Positions 260 to 17,372 are shown, counted from the stretch's first letter. The stretch: 64,000 nt of DNA from Candidatus Bathyarchaeota archaeon (GCA_016930055.1 JAFGHP010000083.1:15138-79137); one strand, 5' to 3'. Notes: generated by a model from the letters alone, not told the origin. Numbers and translations are program-made.

Positions 260-1095
260 GCTTCACCCTTCTCCAACTGATTTTTAACTAATTTCAACAT
301 TAAAGATTCATCAGGATTCAAGCCAGTCCAAATTTTAAAAGACTCAACTCCCTGATACACAAGCATGTCGGCTCCTCCCAAAAATATTGCACCTGCTGCT
401 TCTGCATCAAGTAAAAGCCTAGTTTTTATTGGGTTATAGACTAAATCAAAAACGAATAAAGTTGAAGGTATAGTATTATTTCCTATCGGAGACGACTCCA
501 TATCGGGATACATGCCAACTGGAGTAGCATTTATTAAAATATCAGAAACATTGAGTAAGTTACCTACATTATCTAATTTTTCAGCAGATACTTCTGAATT
601 TCCATATTTTTTAAGGGATTTTACCAAAGATTCTGCTTTTAATAAGTTACGATTAAGAATTGTTAATTTTTTAACTTTATTAACTATACTGAAACCCACC
701 GCTCTTGCAGCTCCTCCAGCTCCTAGAAGTAGTACATCGGTTCCATTAATAGAGCCATATTTATTAGTAATCGCTTTAATTGCGCCTAAACCATCAGTAT
801 TATATCCTTTTAGGAGCCCATCTTGATTATTAATAGTGTTAACAGCACCAATATTCGCTGCAAGATCATCGATTATGTCAATGAATGGAAGAATAGTTAT
901 TTTATGAGGTATGGTAACGTTTGCGCCTTTAACGTTTGAGTTCCTCAAAGATTCTGCAGCTGTTCTTAATTTTTCAGGTTTCACAGATAATAATTCATAT
1001 TTTATTTTCAAATTTAGTTTTTGAAAAGCAGTATTATGCATTAAAGGACTCAACGAATGCTCAACAGGATACCCCAATAAATAACAAAATTTCAT
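256..1095 (-). CDS. aroE: shikimate 5-dehydrogenase
   Basis: The 279-aa ORF has an AroE-like N-terminus (GYPVEHSLSPLMHN) and a GAGGAARA Rossmann motif. It lies in an aro operon. Confidence 0.9.
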   Translation of the reverse strand: MKFCYLLGYPVEHSLSPLMHNTAFQKLNLKIKYELLSVKPEKLRTAAESLRNSNVKGANVTIPHKITILPFIDIIDDLAANIGAVNTINNQDGLLKGYNTDGLGAIKAITNKYGSINGTDVLLLGAGGAARAVGFSIVNKVKKLTILNRNLLKAESLVKSLKKYGNSEVSAEKLDNVGNLLNVSDILINATPVGMYPDMESSPIGNNTIPSTLFVFDLVYNPIKTRLLLDAEAAGAIFLGGADMLVYQGVESFKIWTGLNPDESLMLKLVKNQLEKGEA

Positions 1096-1769
1096 TGATG
1101 TAACTCCATTAATTCATAAATTCTTCGAAGCCTCTCCAAAGGTAATTGACCAGGAGCTACTGCTTCATGTTGATTAGGTGAAGCATATGTCCATTCTCCT
1201 CCTACCAAGGGAGATATTATTCTAGACAATACTCCCGATGTAGACATCCCGAAAGCTATGTTTCCTGGATGATTTTTTAAAAATTCTAAATAAACGATGT
1301 TGTCATAATAATTATTTGCGTTACCAACAATTTTACAAATACTACAACCAGAGTTTTTTGCTCTAGTGTACATTTCTTCCATTTCATATATTGTTGGTGT
1401 TTTATTGAAGTCATGATATGAAATTATTAATTTTGAAGATGTGCTTTGAAGATCTGATGCAACATTAAGTATGTTTGGAGTTGATGCTTCTAAATCAACA
1501 TAAGAAAAACCCGAATTACAAGCATTTATTAAAAGATTAATTCTATCTTTTTCAGGTTTTTTCCATAATCCACCATCATTTTTGATTCGTGCAGTTGCTA
1601 TTAACGGGATTTTTGTTACTTCAACGATTTTATAGGGATTAATATCCTTTTTGCTGTAATCGAAACGTATTTCTATTAAATCTGGAGATAGAGGTTCTAG
1701 TCTTTTAATCGTTTTTATTATTTTTGATATATTTAATGCTTGTAGAGTAACACAAATCTTGGGATTCAT
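1092..1769 (-). CDS. aroD: 3-dehydroquinate dehydratase, type I
   Basis: The 225-aa ORF has type I DHQase length and TIM-barrel-like sequence. It lies between aroB and aroE with 4-nt overlaps. Confidence 0.85.
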   Translation of the reverse strand: MNPKICVTLQALNISKIIKTIKRLEPLSPDLIEIRFDYSKKDINPYKIVEVTKIPLIATARIKNDGGLWKKPEKDRINLLINACNSGFSYVDLEASTPNILNVASDLQSTSSKLIISYHDFNKTPTIYEMEEMYTRAKNSGCSICKIVGNANNYYDNIVYLEFLKNHPGNIAFGMSTSGVLSRIISPLVGGEWTYASPNQHEAVAPGQLPLERLRRIYELMELHQ

Positions 1770-1771
1770 GA

Positions 1772-2863
1772 TTATAACTCCAAAACTTTTAAAATAGTAT
1801 CTTCTGGAACTGGTTTAATTATTGGTGTTTTACCTATCCCTGTTGGTAAAATAAAATTTATGCTTCCAGCTTCTGTCTTTTTATCCCTTTTCATAACAGA
1901 TATCAATTCATTATAATTTAATTTCGGTAACTTTATGGGTAAACCCAATGATTTCAACAGATTCTCTTGACGTTCAAAATCGTTATATTTTAAATATCCA
2001 AGATTTTCAGAAATTTTTGATGCAGCTAACATTCCTATTGAAATAGCTTCTCCATGATTAATTTCATGATTACTTAAAGTTTCTATTACATGTCCTAAAG
2101 TATGTCCATAATTTAAAATCGCTCTCTTTCCTTTAGAATCTTTTTCATCTTCTTCGACAAGTTTAGCTTTAATTAATACACATTTTTTTACTATTTGAGT
2201 CATCAGTTTTTTATCAGCTTTAAGTATAAAGCTACCCTTGTTTTCAAGGAGAGTAATTAAATCTGGATCAGAAATTACACCATATTTAATAACTTCTGCT
2301 AAGCCTGAACGTAATTCTCGAAGAGGAAGAGTTTTCAGAACAGAAGTATCACATATAATTAAAGTAGGTTGATAGAATGAACCTATCAAGTTTTTACCTT
2401 TAGAATGGTTAATAGCTGTTTTTCCACCAATAGCACTATCCACTTGACCAAGTAAAGTGGTTGGAATCTGAATATATCTTATACCACGTAAATAAATTGA
2501 TGCAGTAAAACCTGCTGTATCACCTACTGAACCTCCACCAAGTGCTATTACTACACTTTTTCTGTCTAATCCTTTTTCAATATAATCTCCAAGTAATGCT
2601 TCAACAACATTCCATGATTTTGCTGCTTCTCCATCGGGAACCAGTATTTTTTCGATCTTTAATTCAGATAAGTGTTCAAGAATAGATGTACCATATAAAT
2701 CAAAAATTGAAGATGAAGTAACTAAAACACAACTAGTTATTTCATGAACGTTTTTTTTAATTAATAGTTCTATATTTTCTAAAACTTTTTCTCCTATGAA
2801 AATGTGGTGGCTCCTTTCTTCTAACTCTACTGTTATTGGAGCCGGCATTTTATAGCCGGTCAA
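1772..2863 (-). CDS. aroB: 3-dehydroquinate synthase
   Basis: The 363-aa ORF carries a GGGSVGD nucleotide-binding motif and HGEAI metal-binding residues typical of the classical DHQ synthase. Confidence 0.9.
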   Translation of the reverse strand: MTGYKMPAPITVELEERSHHIFIGEKVLENIELLIKKNVHEITSCVLVTSSSIFDLYGTSILEHLSELKIEKILVPDGEAAKSWNVVEALLGDYIEKGLDRKSVVIALGGGSVGDTAGFTASIYLRGIRYIQIPTTLLGQVDSAIGGKTAINHSKGKNLIGSFYQPTLIICDTSVLKTLPLRELRSGLAEVIKYGVISDPDLITLLENKGSFILKADKKLMTQIVKKCVLIKAKLVEEDEKDSKGKRAILNYGHTLGHVIETLSNHEINHGEAISIGMLAASKISENLGYLKYNDFERQENLLKSLGLPIKLPKLNYNELISVMKRDKKTEAGSINFILPTGIGKTPIIKPVPEDTILKVLEL

Positions 2864-2864
2864 T

Positions 2865-3701
2865 TTACATCTGCTTTCCTATTGCTCTAGTTAGGGGATA
2901 TAACTCTTTCATTAAAGTCATGAATTCATTTGGATGAAGACTTTGATCTCCGTCACTTAGAGCTTTCTCTGGTTCAGGATGAACTTCGATTAATAAACCA
3001 TCTGCACCAGCTACAACTGCTGCTTTTGCCATGGGGTTTACTAAACTTCTTACGCCAGTACCATGGCTTGGATCAACAATTATAGGTAAGTGACTTAATT
3101 GTTTAATGACAGGCACTGCAGAAACATCTAGAGTGTTTCTAGTAATAGTTTCATAAGTTCGGATACCCCGTTCACAAAGCATTACTTGTTGATTACCTTC
3201 ATTAAGAATATATTCAGCGCATCCAAGCCACTCTTCGATTGTTGCAGACATTCCTCGTTTGAGTAATACAGGTTTATTTGCTTTACCAACTCTTTTAAGA
3301 AGATTATAATTCTGCATATTTCTGCTACCTATTTGAAGAATATCAGTATAATTTTCTACCAGTTCAACATCCTCAGGACTTAAAACTTCAGTGATTATGG
3401 GTAGATTAGTTTCTTTTCTGGCTTCAGATAGTATTATTAGTCCTTCTTCACCTAATCCTTGGAAACTATATGGTAAAGTACGTGGTTTGAAAGCACCTCC
3501 TCTAATTATGTGGGCTCCAGCTTCTTTTACAGCTCTCGCTGATTCAAGCATCTGTTCCATTGATTCAACAGAGCATGGTCCAGCCATAACAACAAGTTGA
3601 TCTCCCCCAATTTCGATATCTCTTACTTTAATTCGCATGGTTTTATGTTCGCCAGGACTAACAGCTAATTTAATTTTCTGAGATACATTTAACTTTGACA
3701 T
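2865..3701 (-). CDS. 3-deoxy-7-phosphoheptulonate (DAHP) synthase, KDO8PS-like class I-beta
   Basis: The 278-aa ORF reads ...[10 protein letters not shown]...[12 protein letters not shown]..., the DAHPS/KDSA fold signature. It is the first gene of the aro operon. Confidence 0.85.
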
Positions 3702-3792
3702 TATTCTAACCTCAAAATATTTTTAAAAAATAAAAAACATCATATTGAATTTATGTTTAATTTTAGATGTTTTCAATACATCGTTAACATGC

Positions 3793-3805
3793 AGGACAAT
3801 GTCCT
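3793..3805. promoter_or_regulatory. perfect 6-1-6 palindrome AGGACA-A-TGTCCT in the divergent aro / ykgJ intergenic region
   Basis: Seen directly at 3793-3805, about 95 nt upstream of the DAHP synthase start codon. It is GC-rich relative to the surrounding AT-rich spacer, and is a candidate transcription-factor operator. Confidence 0.25.
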
Positions 3806-3966
3806 TGGAAATATTTCTAAGAACTAGGCTTAGAGAAGTTTTTTTATTCGATTTTAGTGAAATTGGCGCATTTATCGCACCGTCCAATATATTGCCTATG
3901 AAGGTACCAATTACATATATTTAACCCTAGTGGAAAAAATATTTAAAATAAGTACTTATTTCAAAG

Positions 3967-4010
3967 TAAGACTTTAAGTGTGCAAAATATTTCATTTAGA
4001 TAAAGTCTTA
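3967..4010. promoter_or_regulatory. 10-bp perfect inverted repeat TAAGACTTTA ... TAAAGTCTTA with a 24-nt spacer
   Basis: The arms lie at 3967-3976 and 4001-4010, about 26 nt upstream of the 4036 start codon. This could be an operator or an RNA hairpin, but AT-rich context raises the chance expectation. Confidence 0.2.
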
Positions 4011-4035
4011 TTAATTATAATGTGGAGTCCCAAGT

Positions 4036-4716
4036 ATGTTATCGAAATCCCCTCTTGACAACATTCTTGAGAAACCGGGTTTTAAACCATTTTCAGGAAA
4101 AAGAGCATTTAAAATTTTAGAATTAACTAAAAATAACCTTAAAACCGTATCTTATAACATGGAAGATGTCTTGAAATCAATTTCTAGCCTAAGTTCAATT
4201 TCAGATAAAGAAATATCATTACTTGTTAACCTCCAATCACAAATATGTACAGGTTGTGGTAATTGTTGCCTTTACAGAGGATCCATTGATATTAATAAAA
4301 ATGAACTTCTTAAGATTGCGTCTTTTCGAAATAAATCGTATAAAAAAATGAAGCAAGAATTAAAAGCTATTCCTTTAGGAAATGGAAAATTTAGAATTCA
4401 ACAACCATGCAAATTTTTTACCGGGAAGAGTTGTGAAATATTTGAAGTTAAACCATTTACTTGTCTTAGTTACCCTACAATTGAAATTTTAAAAAATTTA
4501 AGCACTGGAATATATGATGATTTTTGTCCAATTATTAATGATATTCTATCAGAATTAGTAATTAAACGGGTTATTGAAGAGAAATTATATAAAGAAAATC
4601 CTGAAGAATTTAATGAAATAACAGAAAAATGGAAAAAAGAAATATTATCTTATTCAGAGTTATCTCAAAAAGAACGTTTAAAACTTATGATTCTGAAATA
4701 TAATAATAAAGATTAA
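4036..4716 (+). CDS. YkgJ/UPF0153-family putative Fe-S or Zn-binding protein (CxxCxxCC)
   Basis: The 226-aa ORF contains CTGCGNCC plus downstream Cys residues, the signature of the CxxCxxCC family. Confidence 0.55.
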   Translation: MLSKSPLDNILEKPGFKPFSGKRAFKILELTKNNLKTVSYNMEDVLKSISSLSSISDKEISLLVNLQSQICTGCGNCCLYRGSIDINKNELLKIASFRNKSYKKMKQELKAIPLGNGKFRIQQPCKFFTGKSCEIFEVKPFTCLSYPTIEILKNLSTGIYDDFCPIINDILSELVIKRVIEEKLYKENPEEFNEITEKWKKEILSYSELSQKERLKLMILKYNNKD

Positions 4717-4739
4717 TAAAATGAATAAAATTAGTATTT

Positions 4740-5588
4740 TTAAGATTTGTCTTCAATTTTTGTTTTCAAACTTGATGCTTGGGCATTAGCTTTAGCAATT
4801 AACTCAGATACAGTCTCCTTTGTTACATAACCTGCTTCAATAGCGACTTTCTTAGCATTCCCAAATACATAACTGATTATACTTGGTGCAGTTTCTGGGG
4901 TTACATAAACTGATTTAATTGCTAATTGTAAGGCATTACTGTATGCTTCCTTTAATTTCGTTGCATAACTGGAGATATCAATTAGTAAGTCTGATCCTTG
5001 AATTATTGAACCCTTCTCATAAACTGCTTTAAGACTCAAGCCCATGTAAGCAGCTTTTATATTTAATCTTTGTAAAAGATCAGCTAAATCAGAGTTGATT
5101 ATTTCACCTTCATTAGCTACTAAAGTATCTTGTTGAACCCAAATATTTCCACTTTCAATCCGCGTTTTAATACCTAAAGTACCAAATTTAGCAATCATTG
5201 GTCCTGGAGATATTCCTGTGTTACCTGATGGAATATAAATATCAGTAAGCGCTTTATCTCCAGCTTTTGCGAAAACCTGAGCTTTACTCTTCTCAAGAGT
5301 CATTGCTAGTCTGAAGGGGTCACCATTAGTGAAAAGGAATAAGTTTGGACCTTCAATGGTTTTTATCCATTGTTCAACGCCTTCTTTATTGGCTTTTTCC
5401 ATACTAATTCGCATTAGAGTGTTTTTTATTGCCTTTATCTCAAGTTGCCCTCTGAGGCTTTTCCTCATGTCCATAAGCATACCACTTTGGACTTTGTTGA
5501 GATCTGCAGCAGCAATTATGTGATATTTATTTAATAAATCAACTGTTGATTCAACTATCTCTGTTTTAACTTTAGATACTTGCGACAT
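4740..5588 (-). CDS. rpl10: 50S ribosomal protein L10 (acidic P0)
   Basis: The 282-aa archaeal P0-type L10 has a typical N-terminal domain. It lies downstream of L1 and L11. Confidence 0.9.
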   Translation of the reverse strand: MSQVSKVKTEIVESTVDLLNKYHIIAAADLNKVQSGMLMDMRKSLRGQLEIKAIKNTLMRISMEKANKEGVEQWIKTIEGPNLFLFTNGDPFRLAMTLEKSKAQVFAKAGDKALTDIYIPSGNTGISPGPMIAKFGTLGIKTRIESGNIWVQQDTLVANEGEIINSDLADLLQRLNIKAAYMGLSLKAVYEKGSIIQGSDLLIDISSYATKLKEAYSNALQLAIKSVYVTPETAPSIISYVFGNAKKVAIEAGYVTKETVSELIAKANAQASSLKTKIEDKS

Positions 5589-5598
5589 TATTGTAACC

Positions 5599-6243
5599 TC
5601 AGTATAATTTTACTGCCTCTCCCATACTTGTTTTAATAAACATTGTTTTAATGTTTCCGAAACCACGTTTAGTAGAGCTGGTTAAGTTACTTATAATTGC
5701 TTCAATATTTTGAGCAACTTCTTCATCCGTCATTGATTCTTTTCCAACCATACAATGAACGAAAGGTTTGTCTCTACTTCTTAGTACCACTGCTTTTCTT
5801 TCTCTCTCAATGACATTATCCACTGGAGCTTGAGATGGTACAGGTGTTGGCATTTTGCCACGTGGACCTAATATGGGACCAGCTACACGACCCACTGTTG
5901 GCATTAGTGGGGCTTCACTTATGAAGATATCAAAGTCTTTTAGCCTCTTTTTTGCTGCTTTTTTATCTTTAGCAAGCTCATTTAATTCCGTTGGTTCAAT
6001 AACTTCATCTGCTCCACTTCTACGAGCTCTTAAAGCAAGGTCTCCACCTGCAAAAACAAGAACTTTTTGTCCCTCTATTCCATTAGGTAATTGGACACGT
6101 AGATTAATCCTATTTTCTGGACGTTTCATATCGAGTTCACGGAGGTTAATGACGAGCTCAATTGTCTGCTCGAAGTTGCGTTTAGGTGAGGCTTTTCTAG
6201 CCTTCGATATCGCTGTTAAAATTTGTTGTCTTGGTAACGACAT
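5599..6243 (-). CDS. rpl1: 50S ribosomal protein L1
   Basis: 214 aa, with L1 signature and the conserved L11-L1-L10 order. Confidence 0.9.
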   Translation of the reverse strand: MSLPRQQILTAISKARKASPKRNFEQTIELVINLRELDMKRPENRINLRVQLPNGIEGQKVLVFAGGDLALRARRSGADEVIEPTELNELAKDKKAAKKRLKDFDIFISEAPLMPTVGRVAGPILGPRGKMPTPVPSQAPVDNVIERERKAVVLRSRDKPFVHCMVGKESMTDEEVAQNIEAIISNLTSSTKRGFGNIKTMFIKTSMGEAVKLY

Positions 6244-9927: not shown

Positions 9928-10383
9928 TTAATATATCTTAAGCTCTGGTTTATCCCTATCGAGATCTTTCTTGATTTGGGTAGACATAGCGTCTAATAAA
10001 CTTCGACCTTTTTTACTAATTATACGACCGTTTTTCTCAACCTTCTCCACCAACCCTGCTTTTTCCATTTGTTGAAGAGAAGTACGAATAATATTACCAC
10101 CAGCTAAGCGATGATGAGCTGGAAAATTGCCTATTCTTTTACGACCACCATATTCTTTTCTAAGTCTTTGAACCCCAATTGGACCATTAATATACAATTT
10201 TCTTAAGAGTGAGGCACTTCTAACATACCACCAATCACTTATTTGGGGAACCCTTTCCACATGGCTTCCAGTCTTCACATAATCTGCCCAGTCAGGAGGG
10301 GTCACTTCTTTAATGCTCTCTTTAATATAGCTACTAAGTTTCGAAATTAGTATATCTGCTGGCACGTCGTATACAGTCGTCAC
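9928..10383 (-). CDS. rps19e: 30S ribosomal protein S19e
   Basis: 151 aa with the S19e signature (DWWY.R.ASLLRKLY..GPIGV..LR..YGG). Confidence 0.9.
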   Translation of the reverse strand: MTTVYDVPADILISKLSSYIKESIKEVTPPDWADYVKTGSHVERVPQISDWWYVRSASLLRKLYINGPIGVQRLRKEYGGRKRIGNFPAHHRLAGGNIIRTSLQQMEKAGLVEKVEKNGRIISKKGRSLLDAMSTQIKKDLDRDKPELKIY

Positions 10384-10659: not shown

Positions 10660-10854
10660 ATGAAAAATAGAAAGAAGACCGCTAGATGTGAGATATGCTT
10701 ACAGCCAGCAACAAAAGATTACATGTTTAAATTAGCATATTACGAGGTTAGAAAAAAAGTTAATAAAGTGTTCTGCGGAGCATATTGCCTTAAAGACTTA
10801 GTTGAAAAAGAACTTGATAAAACGCACCTAGATGAACTGTACTCACCAGAATAA
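10660..10854 (+). CDS. small zinc-ribbon protein (hypothetical)
   Basis: The 64-aa ORF has CEIC ... CGAYC Cys pairs. It lies at the left edge of the R-M island. Confidence 0.35.
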   Translation: MKNRKKTARCEICLQPATKDYMFKLAYYEVRKKVNKVFCGAYCLKDLVEKELDKTHLDELYSPE

Positions 10855-11078
10855 TTAGTTGATGAAAACAGGATTCATTGATGATTAAAATGATCTTTAT
10901 CATAATAGCTCAATTATTTTGAAGTACTTCAACGAACCATTCAAAAACAAGTACTATGATCTTCCAGTATTTCGTTTTGCTAGAAACCATGGATGTAAAA
11001 ATTGTACAAATCAAAAATGTGACCTCAAAACTATGAAAAATTGTGAGGAAATAAGGTAGATGAGTTTATTTTATAAAT

Positions 11079-11684
11079 TTAACTTCCCCTATAAGTTGCT
11101 TTTTGAACAATTGTAAAAATCTCATCATCATTATATAAAGCATCAAGAACTTCTTTAAACATATAAGCTTCATGATTACTTGTTTTTTCTTCAATCATCA
11201 TAAGCTCGATAACATGTCCTATAAACTCAACGGAATATTCACCATATTTATCTAATTTTTTAAATCTCTTAAAATCCTTGTCTTTAGTTAATTTTAATTC
11301 ACATTTTTGCTGTTCTTCTTTTGTTGTGAAAGGTTTAATATTTTCCCACATATCAGACAGATATTTAATACACGATTTAGTTAATTTGGGACTGTGTTCC
11401 TTTTTAAGCAATAGATCAATTGCCCAATGAATATGTTGCGGAGTTCTAACTCTTTTTCTCAGCTCCTGATACTTTACAATTATATCTAAATCAGGATGGT
11501 TACCATAACTTCCTTGAAAAACACCGATAATTGTTCCATTTTTTAATCTGAATTCTTTAAACGCAAATAATTTTCTATGTTTTCCATTTCTTCCTTTTAC
11601 TGAACATTCCATCAAAATATTATCATCTGTATGTTTTATTTCTAAATCAGGTTTAAAATTTTTTGTATTTTTTAAATATTTCAA
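11079..11684 (-). CDS. hypothetical protein (R-M island; divergent from the Dam-like MTase)
   Basis: The 201-aa ORF has no recognisable family. The clean ORF shares a 114-bp divergent promoter region with the Dam-family MTase gene. Confidence 0.5.
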   Translation of the reverse strand: MKYLKNTKNFKPDLEIKHTDDNILMECSVKGRNGKHRKLFAFKEFRLKNGTIIGVFQGSYGNHPDLDIIVKYQELRKRVRTPQHIHWAIDLLLKKEHSPKLTKSCIKYLSDMWENIKPFTTKEEQQKCELKLTKDKDFKRFKKLDKYGEYSVEFIGHVIELMMIEEKTSNHEAYMFKEVLDALYNDDEIFTIVQKATYRGS

Positions 11685-11798
11685 AAAGTTAATACTCTCC
11701 GTTAAAATACATGAAACTTGTTTTAATAAATAAAAGTTTAGTACTAATAAATAATAGGATATAAATTATATGATTGATTATCTCAAAATCAAGGTATC

Positions 11799-12623
11799 AT
11801 GATCGAACCAATATTGAAATGGGCTGGGGGAAAAAGAAGTCTCATACCAGAAATAATATCATTGTTACCTAAAGATTATAGAAACAAAAAATATCATGAA
11901 CCCTTCTTTGGTGGTGGAGCCTTATTTTTTGAGATCCAGCCTAAATCTGGTTCTATCAATGATATAAATAGACAATTAATGAATTTTTATAGGGTAATTC
12001 GAGATAAACCAGAAGAAATCATTGAATTAGCATCTAGTTATAAATACGAAAAAGAAGAATTTTACAAGCTTCGAGATAAATATAATACACCAAACCTTAC
12101 AGATGTTGAATATGCCTCACTTCTACTATACTTGAACAAAACTGCATTCAATGGATTATATCGTGTAAACTCAAAAGGGCTATTCAATGTACCTTTTGGT
12201 AGATATAAAAACCCGACAATTGTAGATGAAAATCGAATAAAAAAAGCTAGTAAAGCTCTAAAAAATGTCGAAATCTTAAACAAAGATTTCTCTTATGTAA
12301 TTGATTATTCAAAAAAAGGTGATATCTGTTATTTTGATCCACCCTATTCCCCATTAAATAAGACTGCTTATTTCACTTCATATTCGTCAGATGGTTTCAG
12401 TTGGGAAGATCAAATAAGACTTAGAGACACTTGTATTTCACTTGATAAAAAAGGTGTTTTATTTGTTTTAAGTAATTCATATGTTAAGGAATTAGTTGAA
12501 GAATACCGAAAAATAGATTCATTTTATATTAAAACTGTTAAAGCTAATCGAGCAATTAATTCAAAAGCTAGTAATCGAGGACCCATTAACGAGATTCTTG
12601 TAACAAATATACTTGTAAAATAA
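11799..12623 (+). CDS. Dam-family (D12 class) DNA N6-adenine methyltransferase
   Basis: The 274-aa ORF has the N-terminal KWAGGK motif and the DPPY catalytic motif (FDPPYSP), and collinear similarity to E. coli Dam and DpnM-type enzymes. Confidence 0.85.
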   Translation: MIEPILKWAGGKRSLIPEIISLLPKDYRNKKYHEPFFGGGALFFEIQPKSGSINDINRQLMNFYRVIRDKPEEIIELASSYKYEKEEFYKLRDKYNTPNLTDVEYASLLLYLNKTAFNGLYRVNSKGLFNVPFGRYKNPTIVDENRIKKASKALKNVEILNKDFSYVIDYSKKGDICYFDPPYSPLNKTAYFTSYSSDGFSWEDQIRLRDTCISLDKKGVLFVLSNSYVKELVEEYRKIDSFYIKTVKANRAINSKASNRGPINEILVTNILVK

Positions 12624-13271
12624 TTATTTTTTAACTTTTTCAAATACTAGAAAATATGTATGCATAATAACTGAACAAGGACGATTTTTTACTTGAAAAG
12701 CAGTTGGCGACATACGATGATGAATAAATATGAAAGTATCTATTAATCTAAAATTTGAAAGTTTACTAACCCAAGTTATATGGTGAGCATAAAATTTACG
12801 CTCTTTTGTTTGATATTGATCAGCACATTTTAAAATGAGCTTACCATCATCTTTTAACCAATCAGGAAATTTATCATTAGCAAAAACTATGAACCATAAT
12901 AAATCATCATAGGTTTGTATATAATCTCCGTAATCCTGTCTTCTGGGATCATTTGAGTTTTTATAACCAAAGAAATAAGGTGGATCATAAATTATACCAT
13001 CAAATTGTTTATTAAAATTTAGATCTTTGATAGCGCTAACAACTTCTTGTCCATAATTAATTTTATCTGAGAAAATTACTTCTCCATATTCACTAATTTT
13101 ATTACTTCCATTAATATCTGGTTTATAATATTCAACCCAAAGATGCTTTTTACCACATGTAGGATCCAGAATTATCTTATTTTTTGTAGGAGGAATATGA
13201 AAATTTAAGATATCATAAAAATATTCGCCTAATTTTTTATTGGCATTGTGAGATAAAGGATATTTAGCCAT
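12624..13271 (-). CDS. putative small DNA methyltransferase (N6A/N4C, DPPY motif)
   Basis: The 215-aa ORF has an AdoMet motif-I-like DPTCGKK followed by IIYDPPYFFGY (motif IV). It is convergent and abutting the Dam-like gene and divergent from the MutH-like nuclease gene. Confidence 0.55.
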   Translation of the reverse strand: MAKYPLSHNANKKLGEYFYDILNFHIPPTKNKIILDPTCGKKHLWVEYYKPDINGSNKISEYGEVIFSDKINYGQEVVSAIKDLNFNKQFDGIIYDPPYFFGYKNSNDPRRQDYGDYIQTYDDLLWFIVFANDKFPDWLKDDGKLILKCADQYQTKERKFYAHHITWVSKLSNFRLIDTFIFIHHRMSPTAFQVKNRPCSVIMHTYFLVFEKVKK

Positions 13272-13424
13272 TTTAAAGATCTAGATCATAAGAATAAAAA
13301 AAGATATGTGTATTTTATCTATCTAAAGTTAGTTTAAAAAAATATATTACTTTCAATATTTTAAAAGTTTTTTAATAAATTCGGTATTCAGAAAAAATAA
13401 ATCTTTTAAGATTAAACTTAAATC

Positions 13425-14030
13425 ATGAATCGACAAGAAGCTATTGAAAAATTAAATTGTTTAATAAATCAGGATTTAGTTGAACTAGCAAAAAAATTTA
13501 ATGTTACTATCTGGACTGGAACAACTAAAAATAAAGGGTGGGCTGGACATACAATTGAAAAATATTTAGGTTTAGAACTAAATTCAACTCAAAAACCTGA
13601 TTTTGGTGATTGGGAATTAAAGATAGTTCCGTTACTATATGATTCATTTGGTAAATTAAAAGTAAAAGAGACAATGGCAATTACAATGATTAATCCTTCT
13701 CATGTTATTCAACATGATTTTGAAGATAGTCATTTATTAGCAAAATTAAATAGACTTGTTATATGTTCAAGAATATTTGAAAGTCAATCTGAAGATCATT
13801 CTTTATTTCATAGTGCAGCGATTTTTGATTTATCGAATAATGTGTTATTTGAACAAGTAAAAAAAGATTACGAAGAGACTAAAAGTTGTATTATTACGAA
13901 TGGATTTAATAGTTTATCAGGTAATATGGGTCAACTTGTACAACCAAGAACAAAAGGACCAGGTCATGGAAGTACTAGTAGAGCTTTTTATGCTAGAATT
14001 GGGTTTGTAGAAAAAATCTTAAAATTATAA
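13425..14030 (+). CDS. MutH/Sau3AI-family GATC-type endonuclease (putative restriction subunit)
   Basis: The 201-aa ORF reads KNKGWAGHTIEKYLGLELNSTQKPDFGDWELKIVPL, aligning with MutH KGWIG..LE.WLG......P...ALGVELKTIPV including the D..ELK catalytic motif. The C-terminus (PRTKG...SRAFYARIGFVEKI) matches the MutH ...LPRGFYLKKNF tail. Confidence 0.8.
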   Translation: MNRQEAIEKLNCLINQDLVELAKKFNVTIWTGTTKNKGWAGHTIEKYLGLELNSTQKPDFGDWELKIVPLLYDSFGKLKVKETMAITMINPSHVIQHDFEDSHLLAKLNRLVICSRIFESQSEDHSLFHSAAIFDLSNNVLFEQVKKDYEETKSCIITNGFNSLSGNMGQLVQPRTKGPGHGSTSRAFYARIGFVEKILKL

Positions 14031-14246
14031 TTTTAAAATTATAAGAATTAACTTAATTATTAAATTAAAAATATAAAAAATTTAAATAACATTGTTTCGT
14101 TAATTTGATATATTATTAGATTTATTTAAAGATATGAGTGGAGGACGATATAATATTAGGAGAACCTTGGTACAGTTCAGAGCAATTAAGTCAAGAACCA
14201 TAATCCATTTAATTACCTAAGGTAAATATAATAGAAGAGGTTTTTT

Positions 14247-14600
14247 ATGCAACTAATAGAAAACATCGCCTATATATTAATAAATTATTCTAAAATATTT
14301 AATAATGGTATTTATTCAACCTCAAATATACTTAAAAAATATTTGGCAACATATTTTTTTTCTCTATTATTATATTCAATAGATTTTTCAAGTTTATTAT
14401 TCTCAATTTATTGTTATGATGCTTTCGGAGGAGGGCTTCTTGATATATATATTTTATTAATTATACCTATATTGTTTATCCGCTCATATAGTATAATTAA
14501 GTTGAACTTTATAAAATTTAAAAAAAATGCTCATTTGATTTATTTATTTCTAATTTATGGTTTTCCATCAATTCCCTTTGTTTTTTTTTGGAGAAATTAG
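14247..14600 (+). CDS. hypothetical small hydrophobic protein (doubtful; in an AT-rich spacer)
   Basis: The 117-aa ORF is low-complexity Ile/Leu/Phe/Tyr-rich. It could be spurious in a 730-bp AT-rich region. Confidence 0.2.
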   Translation: MQLIENIAYILINYSKIFNNGIYSTSNILKKYLATYFFSLLLYSIDFSSLLFSIYCYDAFGGGLLDIYILLIIPILFIRSYSIIKLNFIKFKKNAHLIYLFLIYGFPSIPFVFFWRN

Positions 14601-14763
14601 GAATATTATCCTTGTTCAATTGGAATCTATCCCAATTAGATCAAAATAAAGCTAATCTTGCATTTATTTTATTGTCTTTAATACCACAAATATTGATTGA
14701 TTATCCTAGACTAATTTTATTAATTTATATATTTAAAGAAAAAAATAACAGCTCTAAGTAGAT

Positions 14764-15042
14764 TTATTCTTTTACATAAAATTCAATATATCCACATACA
14801 CTGCATCTATAAGTTTTAATGTTCATTATTGCTGTTGATTCTCTACCTAGAAACCCTTTTTTGCCTGTTTTTTCTTCCCAATAAGGATACACCGTTGCAG
14901 GTTGCCCTATTTGTGTTGTACCAAAACTACTCATAGGACTCATTGGATTCATTGAAGATGTACTAGGTGGGATATCTATTCTGAAATCACCACTTTTCAT
15001 AGTTCCTCCACATTTAGGACAATTTGTATTTTGATTGGACAT
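14764..15042 (-). CDS. zinc-ribbon domain protein (hypothetical)
   Basis: The 92-aa ORF has an N-terminal CPKCGG and a C-terminal CSVCGY, forming a C4 zinc ribbon. It lies at the right edge of the island. Confidence 0.45.
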   Translation of the reverse strand: MSNQNTNCPKCGGTMKSGDFRIDIPPSTSSMNPMSPMSSFGTTQIGQPATVYPYWEEKTGKKGFLGRESTAIMNIKTYRCSVCGYIEFYVKE

Positions 15043-15199: not shown

Positions 15200-15496
15200 A
15201 TGGAATACATGTATGCCGCTATGCTCCTCTACAGCGCAAAAAAACCAATTACAGAGGAGTCAGTTACAGCGATACTTAATGCCGCCGGTGTCACAGCTGA
15301 CGGTATACGCGTTAAGGCACTTTGTGCTGCACTTGCAGAAGTCAACATTGAAGAGGCTCTCAAGGCACCAGTTTTCGCTACAGCAGCAGCTACACCAGCT
15401 GCAGAAGTTAAGAAAGAAGAAGCAAAACCTGCAGAGAAGCCTAAAGAAGAGAAGAAAGAAGAAGATCTTCAAGGTTTGGGCGCACTCTTCGGTTAA
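15200..15496 (+). CDS. rpl12: 50S ribosomal protein L12 (acidic P1 stalk protein)
   Basis: The 98-aa ORF has an [21 protein letters not shown]-terminus, an Ala/Pro hinge, a KKEE-rich acidic tail and a GLGALFG C-terminus. Confidence 0.9.
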
Positions 15497-15596: not shown

Positions 15597-17372
15597 GTGG
15601 TAAGGTTGATCAATTCTATAAAGTTAAAAAAGATGTTTCTGGAATTCTTTAAGATAAATGGGCATGAAGTAATCACTAACGCATCTCTTATACCAGAGAA
15701 TGATCCTTCAGCTCTATTCACTTCAGCAGGGATGCATCCACTCGTGCCATATCTGCTTGGTCAGCCACATCCAAATGGTAGAAGGCTCGTGAATGTACAA
15801 AAATGCCTTAGAACCAGCGATATAGATGAGGTTGGTGATAGCTTCCACCTAAGCTTTTTCGAGATGTTAGGCAACTGGTCACTAGGAGATTATTTCAAAG
15901 AAAAATCTATTCCATGGAGTTACAAGTTTCTTACAGAAAAAAAGTGGCTAGGTATAAATAAGGAGAGGCTCTATGTCACCGTTTTTGCTGGAGATGAAAA
16001 GGTACCTAGAGACACTGAGAGCGCAAAAATCTGGGAGGAACTTGGTATCCCTAATGAAAAGATATTCTATTTGTCAAGAAAAGACAATTGGTGGGGTCCG
16101 GTGGGAAATACTGGACCTTGTGGACCTGATACGGAGATATTTTATGATACTGGTAAAGAGCCATGTGGAACCGATTGTAAACCTGGTTGTTCCTGTGGCA
16201 AGTATAATGAGATATGGAACAATGTTTTCATGGAATACAACAAGACTCTTGATGGTGAGTACATTCCTCTTCATCAGAGAAATGTAGATACCGGTATGGG
16301 GGTAGAGCGAACTGTTGCGGTCCTTCAGGGTAAGGACAATGTTTACGATACTGAGATATTTTTCCCTCTTATAGAGAAGCTTAAGAAACTCATGGATGTA
16401 GATGAGGTTCCAGAAACCCAAACTAGAAGCATTAGAGTAATATGTGACCACATACGTGCAGCGACATTTATCCTAGCTGAAGGGATAACACCCCTTAATG
16501 TAGAGCAAGGGTATGTCTTGAGAAGGCTAATCAGAGGAGCTATCAGACATGGCAGAATGATAGGATTAGATAAAGAATTCCTCAGTAAGTTATCCCAGAT
16601 TGTGATACTGTCGTATAATGATGATTACCCTTATCTTAAGCAGAAGGAGGAGTTCATTGTCTCAGAGCTAGTGAAGGAGTATAACAGATTTAGTAATACA
16701 TTAGCAAGAGGTTTGAACAGATTCAATAGGATTGCTGCTGAGAAAAAGAAGATTGATTCCAAAGATGCTTTTCTCCTCTATCAGAGCTTTGGCTTCCCTA
16801 TTGAGATAACAAGAGAACTAGGGTATGAGAGTGGTATTGATGTCGATGTGAATGGGTTCCACGAGGAGCTAATGAAACATCAACAGGTTTCTAAGGCTGG
16901 TGCTGACAAAAGGTTTGGTAGTGGCTTAGCTGATACTGCAGAAGCAACAGTTAAGTTACATACAGCAACACATCTACTAAATGAGGCATTGAGACAGGTT
17001 CTTGGTAAAGAGATCTACCAGAAAGGCTCAAACATAACACAGAAACGCCTCAGGTTTGACTTCAACTTCGACAGGAAAATTACAGATTACGAACTAAAAC
17101 AAGTAGAGGATTTGGTTAACAAGCAAATTAGTAAAGCTCTTCCCGTAAAAAGAATTGAGACGACTTTGGATGAAGCAATCGAGATGGGTTGCCAAGCTGT
17201 TTTTGAACAGAAGTATGGTGAGAAGGTCTCTGTTTACATTATAGACGATTTCTCAAAGGAGCTCTGTAGTGGTCCTCACGTAGAAAACACCCGTGAACTC
17301 GGTAGATTTAAGATAGTTAAAGAAGAAGGGATCTCAGCAGGAGTACGACGGATAAGAGCTATTTTGGAATAA
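15597..17372 (+). CDS. alaS: alanyl-tRNA synthetase, bacterial-type, lacking the C-Ala domain
   Basis: The 591-aa ORF has an N-terminus (FLEFFKINGHEVITNASLIPENDPSALFTSAGM...FFEMLGNWSLGDYFK) nearly collinear with E. coli AlaRS. The editing domain carries the HxxxH (HTATH) and CxxxH (CSGPH) Zn motifs, and the ORF ends right after the editing domain. The true start may be GTG at 15597 or the ATG at 15633. Confidence 0.85.
   Translation: MVRLINSIKLKKMFLEFFKINGHEVITNASLIPENDPSALFTSAGMHPLVPYLLGQPHPNGRRLVNVQKCLRTSDIDEVGDSFHLSFFEMLGNWSLGDYFKEKSIPWSYKFLTEKKWLGINKERLYVTVFAGDEKVPRDTESAKIWEELGIPNEKIFYLSRKDNWWGPVGNTGPCGPDTEIFYDTGKEPCGTDCKPGCSCGKYNEIWNNVFMEYNKTLDGEYIPLHQRNVDTGMGVERTVAVLQGKDNVYDTEIFFPLIEKLKKLMDVDEVPETQTRSIRVICDHIRAATFILAEGITPLNVEQGYVLRRLIRGAIRHGRMIGLDKEFLSKLSQIVILSYNDDYPYLKQKEEFIVSELVKEYNRFSNTLARGLNRFNRIAAEKKKIDSKDAFLLYQSFGFPIEITRELGYESGIDVDVNGFHEELMKHQQVSKAGADKRFGSGLADTAEATVKLHTATHLLNEALRQVLGKEIYQKGSNITQKRLRFDFNFDRKITDYELKQVEDLVNKQISKALPVKRIETTLDEAIEMGCQAVFEQKYGEKVSVYIIDDFSKELCSGPHVENTRELGRFKIVKEEGISAGVRRIRAILE

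Follow-up and report, generated by a model that had tools for sequence, protein, structure and literature searches.

A low-GC island in a Candidatus Bathyarchaeota contig with two putative GATC restriction-modification pairs, one including an uncharacterised candidate effector

The 64,000-nucleotide stretch of DNA analysed here (GCA_016930055.1 JAFGHP010000083.1:15138-79137; hereafter the window) is part of a contig from a metagenome-assembled genome (MAG) of Candidatus Bathyarchaeota, and an island carrying a GATC-type restriction-modification (R-M) system had been predicted in it, between two blocks of translation genes. Homology and gene context support the presence of such an island, with a specificity that is predicted, and we conclude that it is probably a cluster, acquired horizontally, in which two Type II R-M pairs lie side by side, both likely to be directed at GATC and governed by N6-methyladenine (m6A). 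One pair would consist of a DpnM-type Dam methylase and a 177-aa protein of an uncharacterised family, here called unk178, and the other of a 215-aa methylase with a DPPY motif and a 201-aa nuclease related to MutH and Sau3AI; in each pair the genes are divergent. The original prediction had described a three-gene composition resembling that of DpnII cassettes. In our analysis unk178 is probably a fourth component, giving two methylases and two restriction proteins (2M+2R). Every ORF of that prediction was recovered at the coordinates it gave in an ORF check of the window, and identical proteins carry the tags JW865_07725, JW865_07735 and JW865_07740. The four genes, numbered from the first base of the window, are as follows.

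11079-11612, minus strand: unk178, 177 aa, uncharacterised family, candidate restriction partner (over-extended ORF: 11079-11684)
11799-12623, plus strand: Dam/DpnM-type (D12, alpha-class) N6-adenine DNA methyltransferase, predicted product G(m6A)TC
12624-13271, minus strand: small methylase, a minimal DPPY amino-methyltransferase of 215 aa, predicted second GATC m6A methylase
13425-14030, plus strand: MutH/Sau3AI-type PD-(D/E)XK endonuclease, single-domain, 201 aa, predicted to be GATC-specific and m6A-sensitive

The Dam methylase

The product of the second gene matches PF02086 (7.9e-66; 222.8 bits against a cut-off of 22) and, over its full length, TIGR00571 (286.6 bits against a cut-off of 114.85), which bears out its earlier assignment to the Dam family on the basis of KWAGGK and DPPY motifs. 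KWAGGK is present, and the S-adenosylmethionine-binding EPFFGGGALFF (FxGxG) and, after it, the catalytic YFDPPYSP are in the alpha-class order and align with the corresponding motifs of DpnM and EcoDam. Among solved structures the nearest is 2dpm (1.8e-70), that of DpnM, which methylates double-stranded GATC in the DpnII system; EcoDam comes next (2.3e-35). The protein is also 47 % identical to M.LlaDCHIA of pSRQ700, an enzyme from a DpnII-related system for which G(m6A)TC methylation was established by experiment (PMC4132740). The 2dpm match and the identity to M.LlaDCHIA together suggest that this enzyme methylates the adenine of GATC.

The unk178 family

The unknown protein had been reported as 201 aa long. 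All 160 homologues start at an internal methionine (MECS...) and none uses the upstream TTG, and the gene was for that reason re-sized to 177 aa (11079-11612). Several hundred proteins from uncultured archaea and bacteria belong to the family. No match to it was found in Pfam, NCBIfam, PADLOC or PHROG, also when 47 diverse members were scanned singly, and neither a search of PDB sequences with the family profile nor a comparison with PDB folds gave a significant match. A literature search found no described family that corresponds to it, though this does not prove that none exists. The idea of a diverged nuclease of the DpnII or MutH type was considered and rejected (hhalign probabilities of 0.1 % and 1.2 %), as was a SeqA-, HEPN-, HNH- or PD-(D/E)XK-like protein (motifs RTPxHxHW, D-x3-K and EEK), for which the fold search gave no support. 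The match of the N-terminal part to the SH3-like DNA binder Cren7 is not significant (Foldseek E 0.8), and the same holds for a match to Las1. Residues D43, H60, D66, K70 and E142 are conserved and would be compatible with a metal-dependent active site. Longer relatives, in groups of 280 aa and 336 aa, bear N-terminal extensions of unknown nature, and in one protein of 462 aa (P0364) an N-terminal Dam methylase is fused to the unk178 domain.

The genomic surroundings of the family are far more informative. Eighty metagenomic loci encoding unk178 family members were fetched and known partners were mapped by tblastn. In 69 of the 80, unk178 lies directly beside a GATC-type or other N6_N4 methylase. 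The neighbour is a Dam-type methylase only in 30 loci, a beta-class methylase of the DpnA/M.LlaDCHIB type only in 25, both of these in 11 and another N6_N4 methylase in three; no methylase was found in the remaining 11, most of which break off at or close to unk178 on one side or both. Identity to M.LlaDCHIB is 41-48 % for the DpnA-type partners. Only a single locus has a known nuclease nearby, of the DpnII family, and the MutH type was never encountered. Clustering of all neighbouring ORFs revealed no third recurrent gene, the next 'families' being antisense ORFs inside the two genes themselves. Among 79 pairs of unk178 and methylase genes, 50 are convergent (median gap approximately 20-50 bp), 27 are divergent and two are in tandem, and the two genes are thus almost never co-transcribed.

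As unk178 pairs interchangeably with structurally unrelated classes of GATC methylase, the link between them would be the DNA mark and not a protein partner. A mobile gene with a GATC methylase as its sole constant companion, an interchangeable methylase class and independent transcription behaves as the restriction gene of a Type II pair would.

Members of the family are also found in larger assemblies. One composite cluster (L011) has the order small methylase-unk178-Dam-DpnII. On three viral contigs from IMG/VR (L190-L192, 2991-6191), co-oriented genes encode a Dam methylase, an unk178-like protein (30 % identity), a DpnII nuclease and a DpnA-type methylase, so that the unk178 relative sits inside a complete DpnII-type cassette. 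On three human-microbiome contigs (L193-L195, approximately 800-5700), genes for a Dam methylase and a methylase like M.LlaDCHIB (66 % identity) are divergent from an operon of four genes encoding, in order, a MutH-like protein (223 aa), a DUF7004 protein (221 aa), a long unk178 relative (336 aa) and a 200-aa unknown. All four functional classes of the window island are thus found on these last contigs, represented by distant homologues.

The small methylase

The 215-aa protein has the class-I Rossmann methyltransferase fold, with the motif-I glycine loop, the motif-II acidic residue and DPPY, in a linear (gamma-like) order in which motif I precedes motif IV. It matches DNA methylases in PHROG (2.5e-16) and PADLOC (5.3e-7); its score against PF01555 (19) does not reach the cut-off of 26.7. 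A DpnA-like single-strand methylase has been described (PMC3812788). Orthology of the small methylase to DpnA was rejected, since blastp gave E >0.09 against enzymes of the DpnA/M.LlaDCHIB type and motif I stands before motif IV, and the earlier view that this second, small DPPY methylase is unlike DpnA is upheld. Homology searches found no characterised relative. The family has approximately 180 members of approximately 214 aa. In L013 and L181/L182 its gene comes immediately after that of a DpnII-family nuclease, with no other methylase gene present, and in L011 it heads the cluster described above. Where it is the sole methylase beside a DpnII-family nuclease it must protect double-stranded GATC alone, and it therefore does not appear to be merely a DpnA-like single-strand specialist. 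Its gene context predicts that it is a second GATC m6A methylase.

The MutH/Sau3AI-type nuclease

That the 201-aa protein is a MutH-family nuclease, as first proposed, is confirmed by a PF02976 score of 48.8 bits (gathering cut-off 23) and by the presence of both the PDFGDWELK motif and the MutH-type C-terminal tail with its RAFY motif. Matches in the PDB were to Sau3AI (4pxg, 4.9e-9) and MutH (2aoq, 3.3e-7), and the entire length of the protein can be aligned with MutH and with the catalytic N-terminal domain of Sau3AI. It is an orthologue of neither. It scores 63.2 bits (2.1e-17) against the 300 required by the Sau3AI model NF040973, of which it covers only positions 4-187 of 475. Although the MutH models are matched at 1e-15, its scores against the equivalogs NF003458 and TIGR02248 are 57.4 against 243 and 39 against 229.9. 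It is thus below both sets of equivalog cut-offs and has one domain.

In the alignment, K48-G49-W50 of Escherichia coli MutH corresponds to K37-G38-W39, and the catalytic residues E56, D70, E77, K79 and K116 correspond to E45, D59, E64, K66 and K107. Further equivalents are R175 for R184, K177 for K186 and Y189 for Y212, the last being the adenine-methylation sensor of MutH (PMC3848065, PMC3089477). At the position of D59, 111 of the 120 closest homologues (P0001-P0120) have Asn (SPNFGSWELK), whereas MutH, Sau3AI and the window protein have the first catalytic Asp (KPDFGDWELK).

Over 5600 homologues of approximately 201-204 aa and approximately 60 % identity were found across bacterial phyla. 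At five independent loci (L001, L002, L004, L185 and L186) a DpnA-type methylase gene is directly upstream of the nuclease gene on the same strand, and those of L001, L002 and L004 encode proteins 55-57 % identical to M.LlaDCHIB. More distant family members are paired with Dam-type methylases (L187, L188). As both classes of partner methylase are GATC m6A enzymes, a GATC target for the nuclease is supported, and we predict that it is a GATC-specific, m6A-sensitive restriction enzyme. Neither MutS nor MutL was found in the neighbourhoods of the nuclease-family loci inspected.

Probable foreign origin of the island

The GC content is 25-29 % across 10.9-14.8 kb, as against 33-40 % on either flank. 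Relatives were located via the alanyl-tRNA synthetase (AlaRS) gene and then surveyed by tblastn, giving six Bathyarchaeia loci (L018-L022 and L027). All six retain ftsY-pfdA-...-S19e and L12-alaS-leuS, and all four island genes are missing from every one of them. Hence, the block is not part of the core genome, and the low GC content and absence from relatives argue that it was acquired horizontally, a step which forms part of the overall interpretation and shares its standing as probable. These relatives are only 65-79 % identical in the flanking proteins and the insertion can be dated only loosely.

The gap in the relatives is 1.7-4.3 kb long and is filled by other genes, among them acetamidase/formamidase-like genes; rubredoxin-like, ferritin-like and 4Fe-4S-type genes are present in L019. 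Insertions appear to recur at this position in the lineage. L12 had been described as detached, a description that does not hold as the relatives share the layout S19e ... L12-alaS-leuS, in which the size of the gap varies. In plasmid and phage collections there were no annotated relatives of unk178 or of the small methylase, and one weak match to the nuclease.

Comparison with known systems

LlaDCHI, a relative of DpnII, has been shown by experiment to be a G(m6A)TC system (PMC4132740, PMC3812788). Like DpnII (Streptococcus pneumoniae dpnMAB) and LlaDCHI (Lactococcus lactis pSRQ700), the island would be a GATC/m6A system with two methylases, one of the DpnM/M.LlaDCHIA type, in a compact mobile cassette between housekeeping genes. 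Unlike them, it lacks a beta-class methylase of the DpnA type (PF01555), the second methylase being an unrelated linear DPPY enzyme, and none of its proteins matches the DpnII-family nuclease PF04556. It also has two candidate effectors instead of one, and two divergent pairs instead of a co-oriented operon. Two of the three components that define the DpnII cassettes are missing, namely a methylase of the DpnA type and a nuclease of the DpnII family. The island is therefore not a strict member of these cassettes, and is best viewed as a putative GATC system that is functionally DpnII/LlaDCHI-like, with duplicated functions. The original prediction had allowed for either a rearranged or novel variant of DpnII or two adjacent systems, and of these the evidence favours the second.

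With Sau3AI and MutH the nuclease shares the PD-(D/E)XK domain, the D-(x)n-E-x-K and KGW motifs, the RxK loop, the equivalent of Tyr212 and, by prediction, the GATC target. The cognate methylase of Sau3AI is a C5-cytosine enzyme, whereas the partner methylases in the island are N6-adenine enzymes. Sau3AI is furthermore a two-domain protein of approximately 490-510 aa with a C-terminal effector domain (PMC5766183), which the single 201-aa domain of the island nuclease lacks. Unlike MutH, the nuclease family is found in methylase-nuclease operons without a MutL context. In size and fold class the nuclease is similar to BcnI and MvaI, though these recognise CCSGG and CCWGG and not the predicted GATC.

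The nearest architectural precedent for 2M+2R would be SsuDAT1I of Streptococcus suis, a GATC cassette with two methylase genes and two isoschizomeric restriction genes between housekeeping genes. Both nucleases and both methylases of SsuDAT1I are of the DpnII/LlaDCHI type, whereas the two effectors and one methylase of the island are from other families.

Proposed mechanism

Either methylase would convert host GATC to G(m6A)TC. The MutH-type enzyme would bind unmethylated GATC asymmetrically as a monomer, with a pocket at Tyr189, the equivalent of Tyr212, that excludes the N6-methyl group, and would cut 5' of the G. BcnI and MvaI are monomers with one active site that re-orient between two successive nicks and so produce a double-strand break (PMC3089477, PMC3203586, PMC5766183), and the island enzyme may produce its double-strand break in the same way. 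The second effector, unk178, would be unrelated and mechanistically independent; it would act on unmethylated sites and be tolerated only when GATC is methylated. As both pairs would use the same mark, the four genes may act as a single immunity unit in which methylases and effectors are both redundant. The adjacent methylase and nuclease genes and the patchy distribution across domains are those of Type II R-M systems, and a shared specificity is predicted.

For unk178, we put the chance that it is a restriction effector at about one half and that it is a non-nucleolytic accessory or reader at about one quarter. A wider proposal is that unk178 represents a previously unrecognised structural class of restriction effector, with an SH3-like beta and a helical domain, which targets unmethylated GATC and is neutralised by any GATC m6A methylase. 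It would then be one of several interchangeable effectors that, together with the DpnII and MutH types, accumulate around GATC methylases as shared-immunity islands in archaea and bacteria. This proposal is tentative, and we hold it with slightly less than even confidence.

Weighing the interpretation

Several observations weigh against the interpretation as two adjacent GATC pairs. The GATC specificity of all four proteins is deduced from homology or guilt by association, and the gene order and orientation in the window differ from the tandem methylase-then-nuclease arrangement usual in the nuclease family. At the borders of the island there are no mobility genes or integrase, tRNA, Rfam element or convincing flanking direct repeats. 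In the window, GATC is only weakly under-represented, with 167 sites observed against 190 +/- 13 in dinucleotide shuffles (z approximately -1.8; 95 of 100 shuffles had at least as many as observed) and a Markov observed/expected ratio (O/E) of 0.84, the second lowest among the sixteen 4-bp palindromes after GGCC. Inside the island there are 16 sites against 13.3 expected, that is no depletion. Strong avoidance of GATC as a signature of restriction was rejected, the effect being mild and too weak for use on 64 kb. These statistics agree with the model and do not demonstrate restriction pressure.

GGCC is the most under-represented 4-bp palindrome of the window (17 observed against 30 expected, O/E 0.56), though the counts are small. 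This deficit could reflect another restriction system in the genome.

The remaining points on this side concern unk178, and they are also those which favour the alternative that survives best, namely a single DpnII-like 2M+1R system made up of the Dam methylase, the small methylase and the MutH-type nuclease, to which unk178 contributes a non-nucleolytic accessory such as a reader, regulator or sensor. No recognisable nuclease fold or motif was found in unk178 (PD-(D/E)XK, HNH, GIY-YIG, PLD or half-pipe), and its N-terminal part has the weak likeness to Cren7 noted above. It is present in complete cassettes that already hold a nuclease (L011, L119, L190-L192 and L193-L195), which also fits an accessory role. 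In one diverged protein of 388 aa (P0476; L196, 4001-5167) the unk178 domain is followed by a C-terminal TIR domain, an effector domain often joined to sensor domains, and there is no methylase within reach at this locus, which hints that the domain may be a sensor rather than catalytic. Set against this, in approximately 75 of the 80 loci unk178 has a methylase as its sole conserved neighbour and no known nuclease beside it, so that an accessory role would imply orphan methylases with an obligatory mobile partner. Moreover, tandem arrangements are confined to two of 79 pairs, the partners come from unrelated methylase classes, the five conserved residues (D, H, D, K and E) would suit an active site, and the fusion of Dam to unk178 resembles known methylase-nuclease fusions (PMC2441816). 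On balance we consider a single system with an accessory unk178 unlikely.

A second alternative, that the small methylase and the MutH-type nuclease recognise a site other than GATC, for instance one of the CCNGG type as BcnI and MvaI do, so that the island would hold two systems of different specificity, we regard as improbable. It draws on a partial match of the nuclease to PF15515 (MvaI_BcnI; 3.3e-7), on the naming of some homologues as 'MvaI/BcnI family restriction endonuclease' by NCBI and on the lack of a characterised relative of the small methylase. The PF15515 match is confined to a stretch of 37 residues (32-68), whereas the alignment to MutH and Sau3AI covers the entire protein, with the RxK loop and the equivalent of Tyr212. 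The partners of the nuclease family are close homologues of M.LlaDCHIB, and the small methylase family adjoins DpnII-family nucleases. The partner methylases of MvaI and BcnI are N4-cytosine enzymes, which likewise counts against a site of the CCNGG type.

It is more doubtful still that the island is a decaying remnant in which at least one of the four genes is inactive, for example orphan methylases with dead nucleases; though the gene order is unusual, host GATC avoidance is weak and an AT-rich tail of 730 bp has only unsupported ORFs, all four ORFs are full length and keep every family-invariant residue. We attach almost no weight to a role of the Dam methylase and the MutH homologue in methyl-directed mismatch repair or housekeeping epigenetics instead of defence. 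Dam and MutH are the strand-discrimination pair of E. coli, and the catalytic and methyl-sensing residues of MutH are retained. However, the nuclease reaches 57 bits of a 243-bit MutH equivalog cut-off, and its family shares operons with methylases in many phyla, in proviral or mobile settings where neither MutS nor MutL is a neighbour. The block also has a foreign GC content and is missing from related Bathyarchaeia. Two adjacent Type II pairs thus remain the interpretation that we prefer.

Intergenic regions, island edges and flanking genes

The other features of the locus are listed below.

End at 10383: S19e-L39e-L31e-prefoldin-FtsY block, left flank
10660-10854, plus strand: zinc-ribbon ORF, 64 aa, CxxC...CxxxC, left edge, membership of the island uncertain
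11613-11798: AT-rich divergent intergenic region between unk178 and Dam, into which the extended unk178 ORF runs
13272-13424: divergent intergenic region between the small methylase and the nuclease, 15.7 % GC, containing the palindrome GATCTAGATC
14031-14763: AT-rich island tail, 21 % GC, two hydrophobic ORFs, membership uncertain
14764-15042, minus strand: zinc-ribbon ORF, 92 aa, native, outside the island
Start at 15200: L12 (P1), short AlaRS and leucyl-tRNA synthetase, right flank

Both divergent intergenic regions are strongly AT-rich, and the promoters of unk178 and Dam are presumed to lie in that between these genes. The perfect 10-bp palindrome GATCTAGATC is at 13278-13287, 7 nt upstream of the start codon of the small methylase, and is made up of two GATC sites and CTAG; two GATC sites in this 153-bp region compare with 0.17 expected from its composition. 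One may speculate that the palindrome is a methylation-sensitive operator that makes expression methylation-sensitive.

The tail includes two overlapping hydrophobic ORFs, 14247-14600 (117 aa) and 14588-14761 (57 aa), which had no family match in profile scans and no homologues in the related Bathyarchaeia loci. At the right edge of the island, the tail as a whole may represent the remains of decayed sequence or simply non-coding filler.

The two zinc-ribbon ORFs had been included in the island. The one on the right has positional homologues in L019 (8242-8535) and L027 and is therefore native, and the one on the left is not demonstrably part of the island. This 64-aa ORF has a GC content of 33 %, as in the host flank, and gave neither a family match nor a tblastn match in related Bathyarchaeia at E 1e-5. 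Its pattern CxxC-x25-CxxxC (VFCGAYC) recalls zinc ribbons of the TRASH/L24e type.

The AlaRS of the window (15597-17372) is short at 591 aa and consists of tRNA-synt_2c and tRNA_SAD, with nothing past the SAD domain. Its identity is 70-79 % to most other matches in Bathyarchaeia, approximately 63 % to Aenigmatarchaeota and approximately 55 % to many Clostridia, a pattern that may reflect transfer between domains.

Significance

GATC R-M systems are textbook material. The island as a whole is unsurprising and its defence logic ordinary, and the interest lies in its two uncharacterised families, above all in unk178, whose link to GATC methylases is tight and specific and for which neither a fold nor an annotation is known. 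If unk178 is a nuclease, it would represent a new structural class of Type II restriction enzymes and provide a small new GATC reagent. The 215-aa DPPY family seemingly protects against DpnII-type enzymes on its own; its members would be among the smallest DNA methyltransferases and useful for the study of minimal target recognition. Unrelated effectors and methylases that act on one mark would here be assembled in one island, a redundancy that phages may find hard to escape, and similar assemblies recur in distant lineages (L011, L190-L195).

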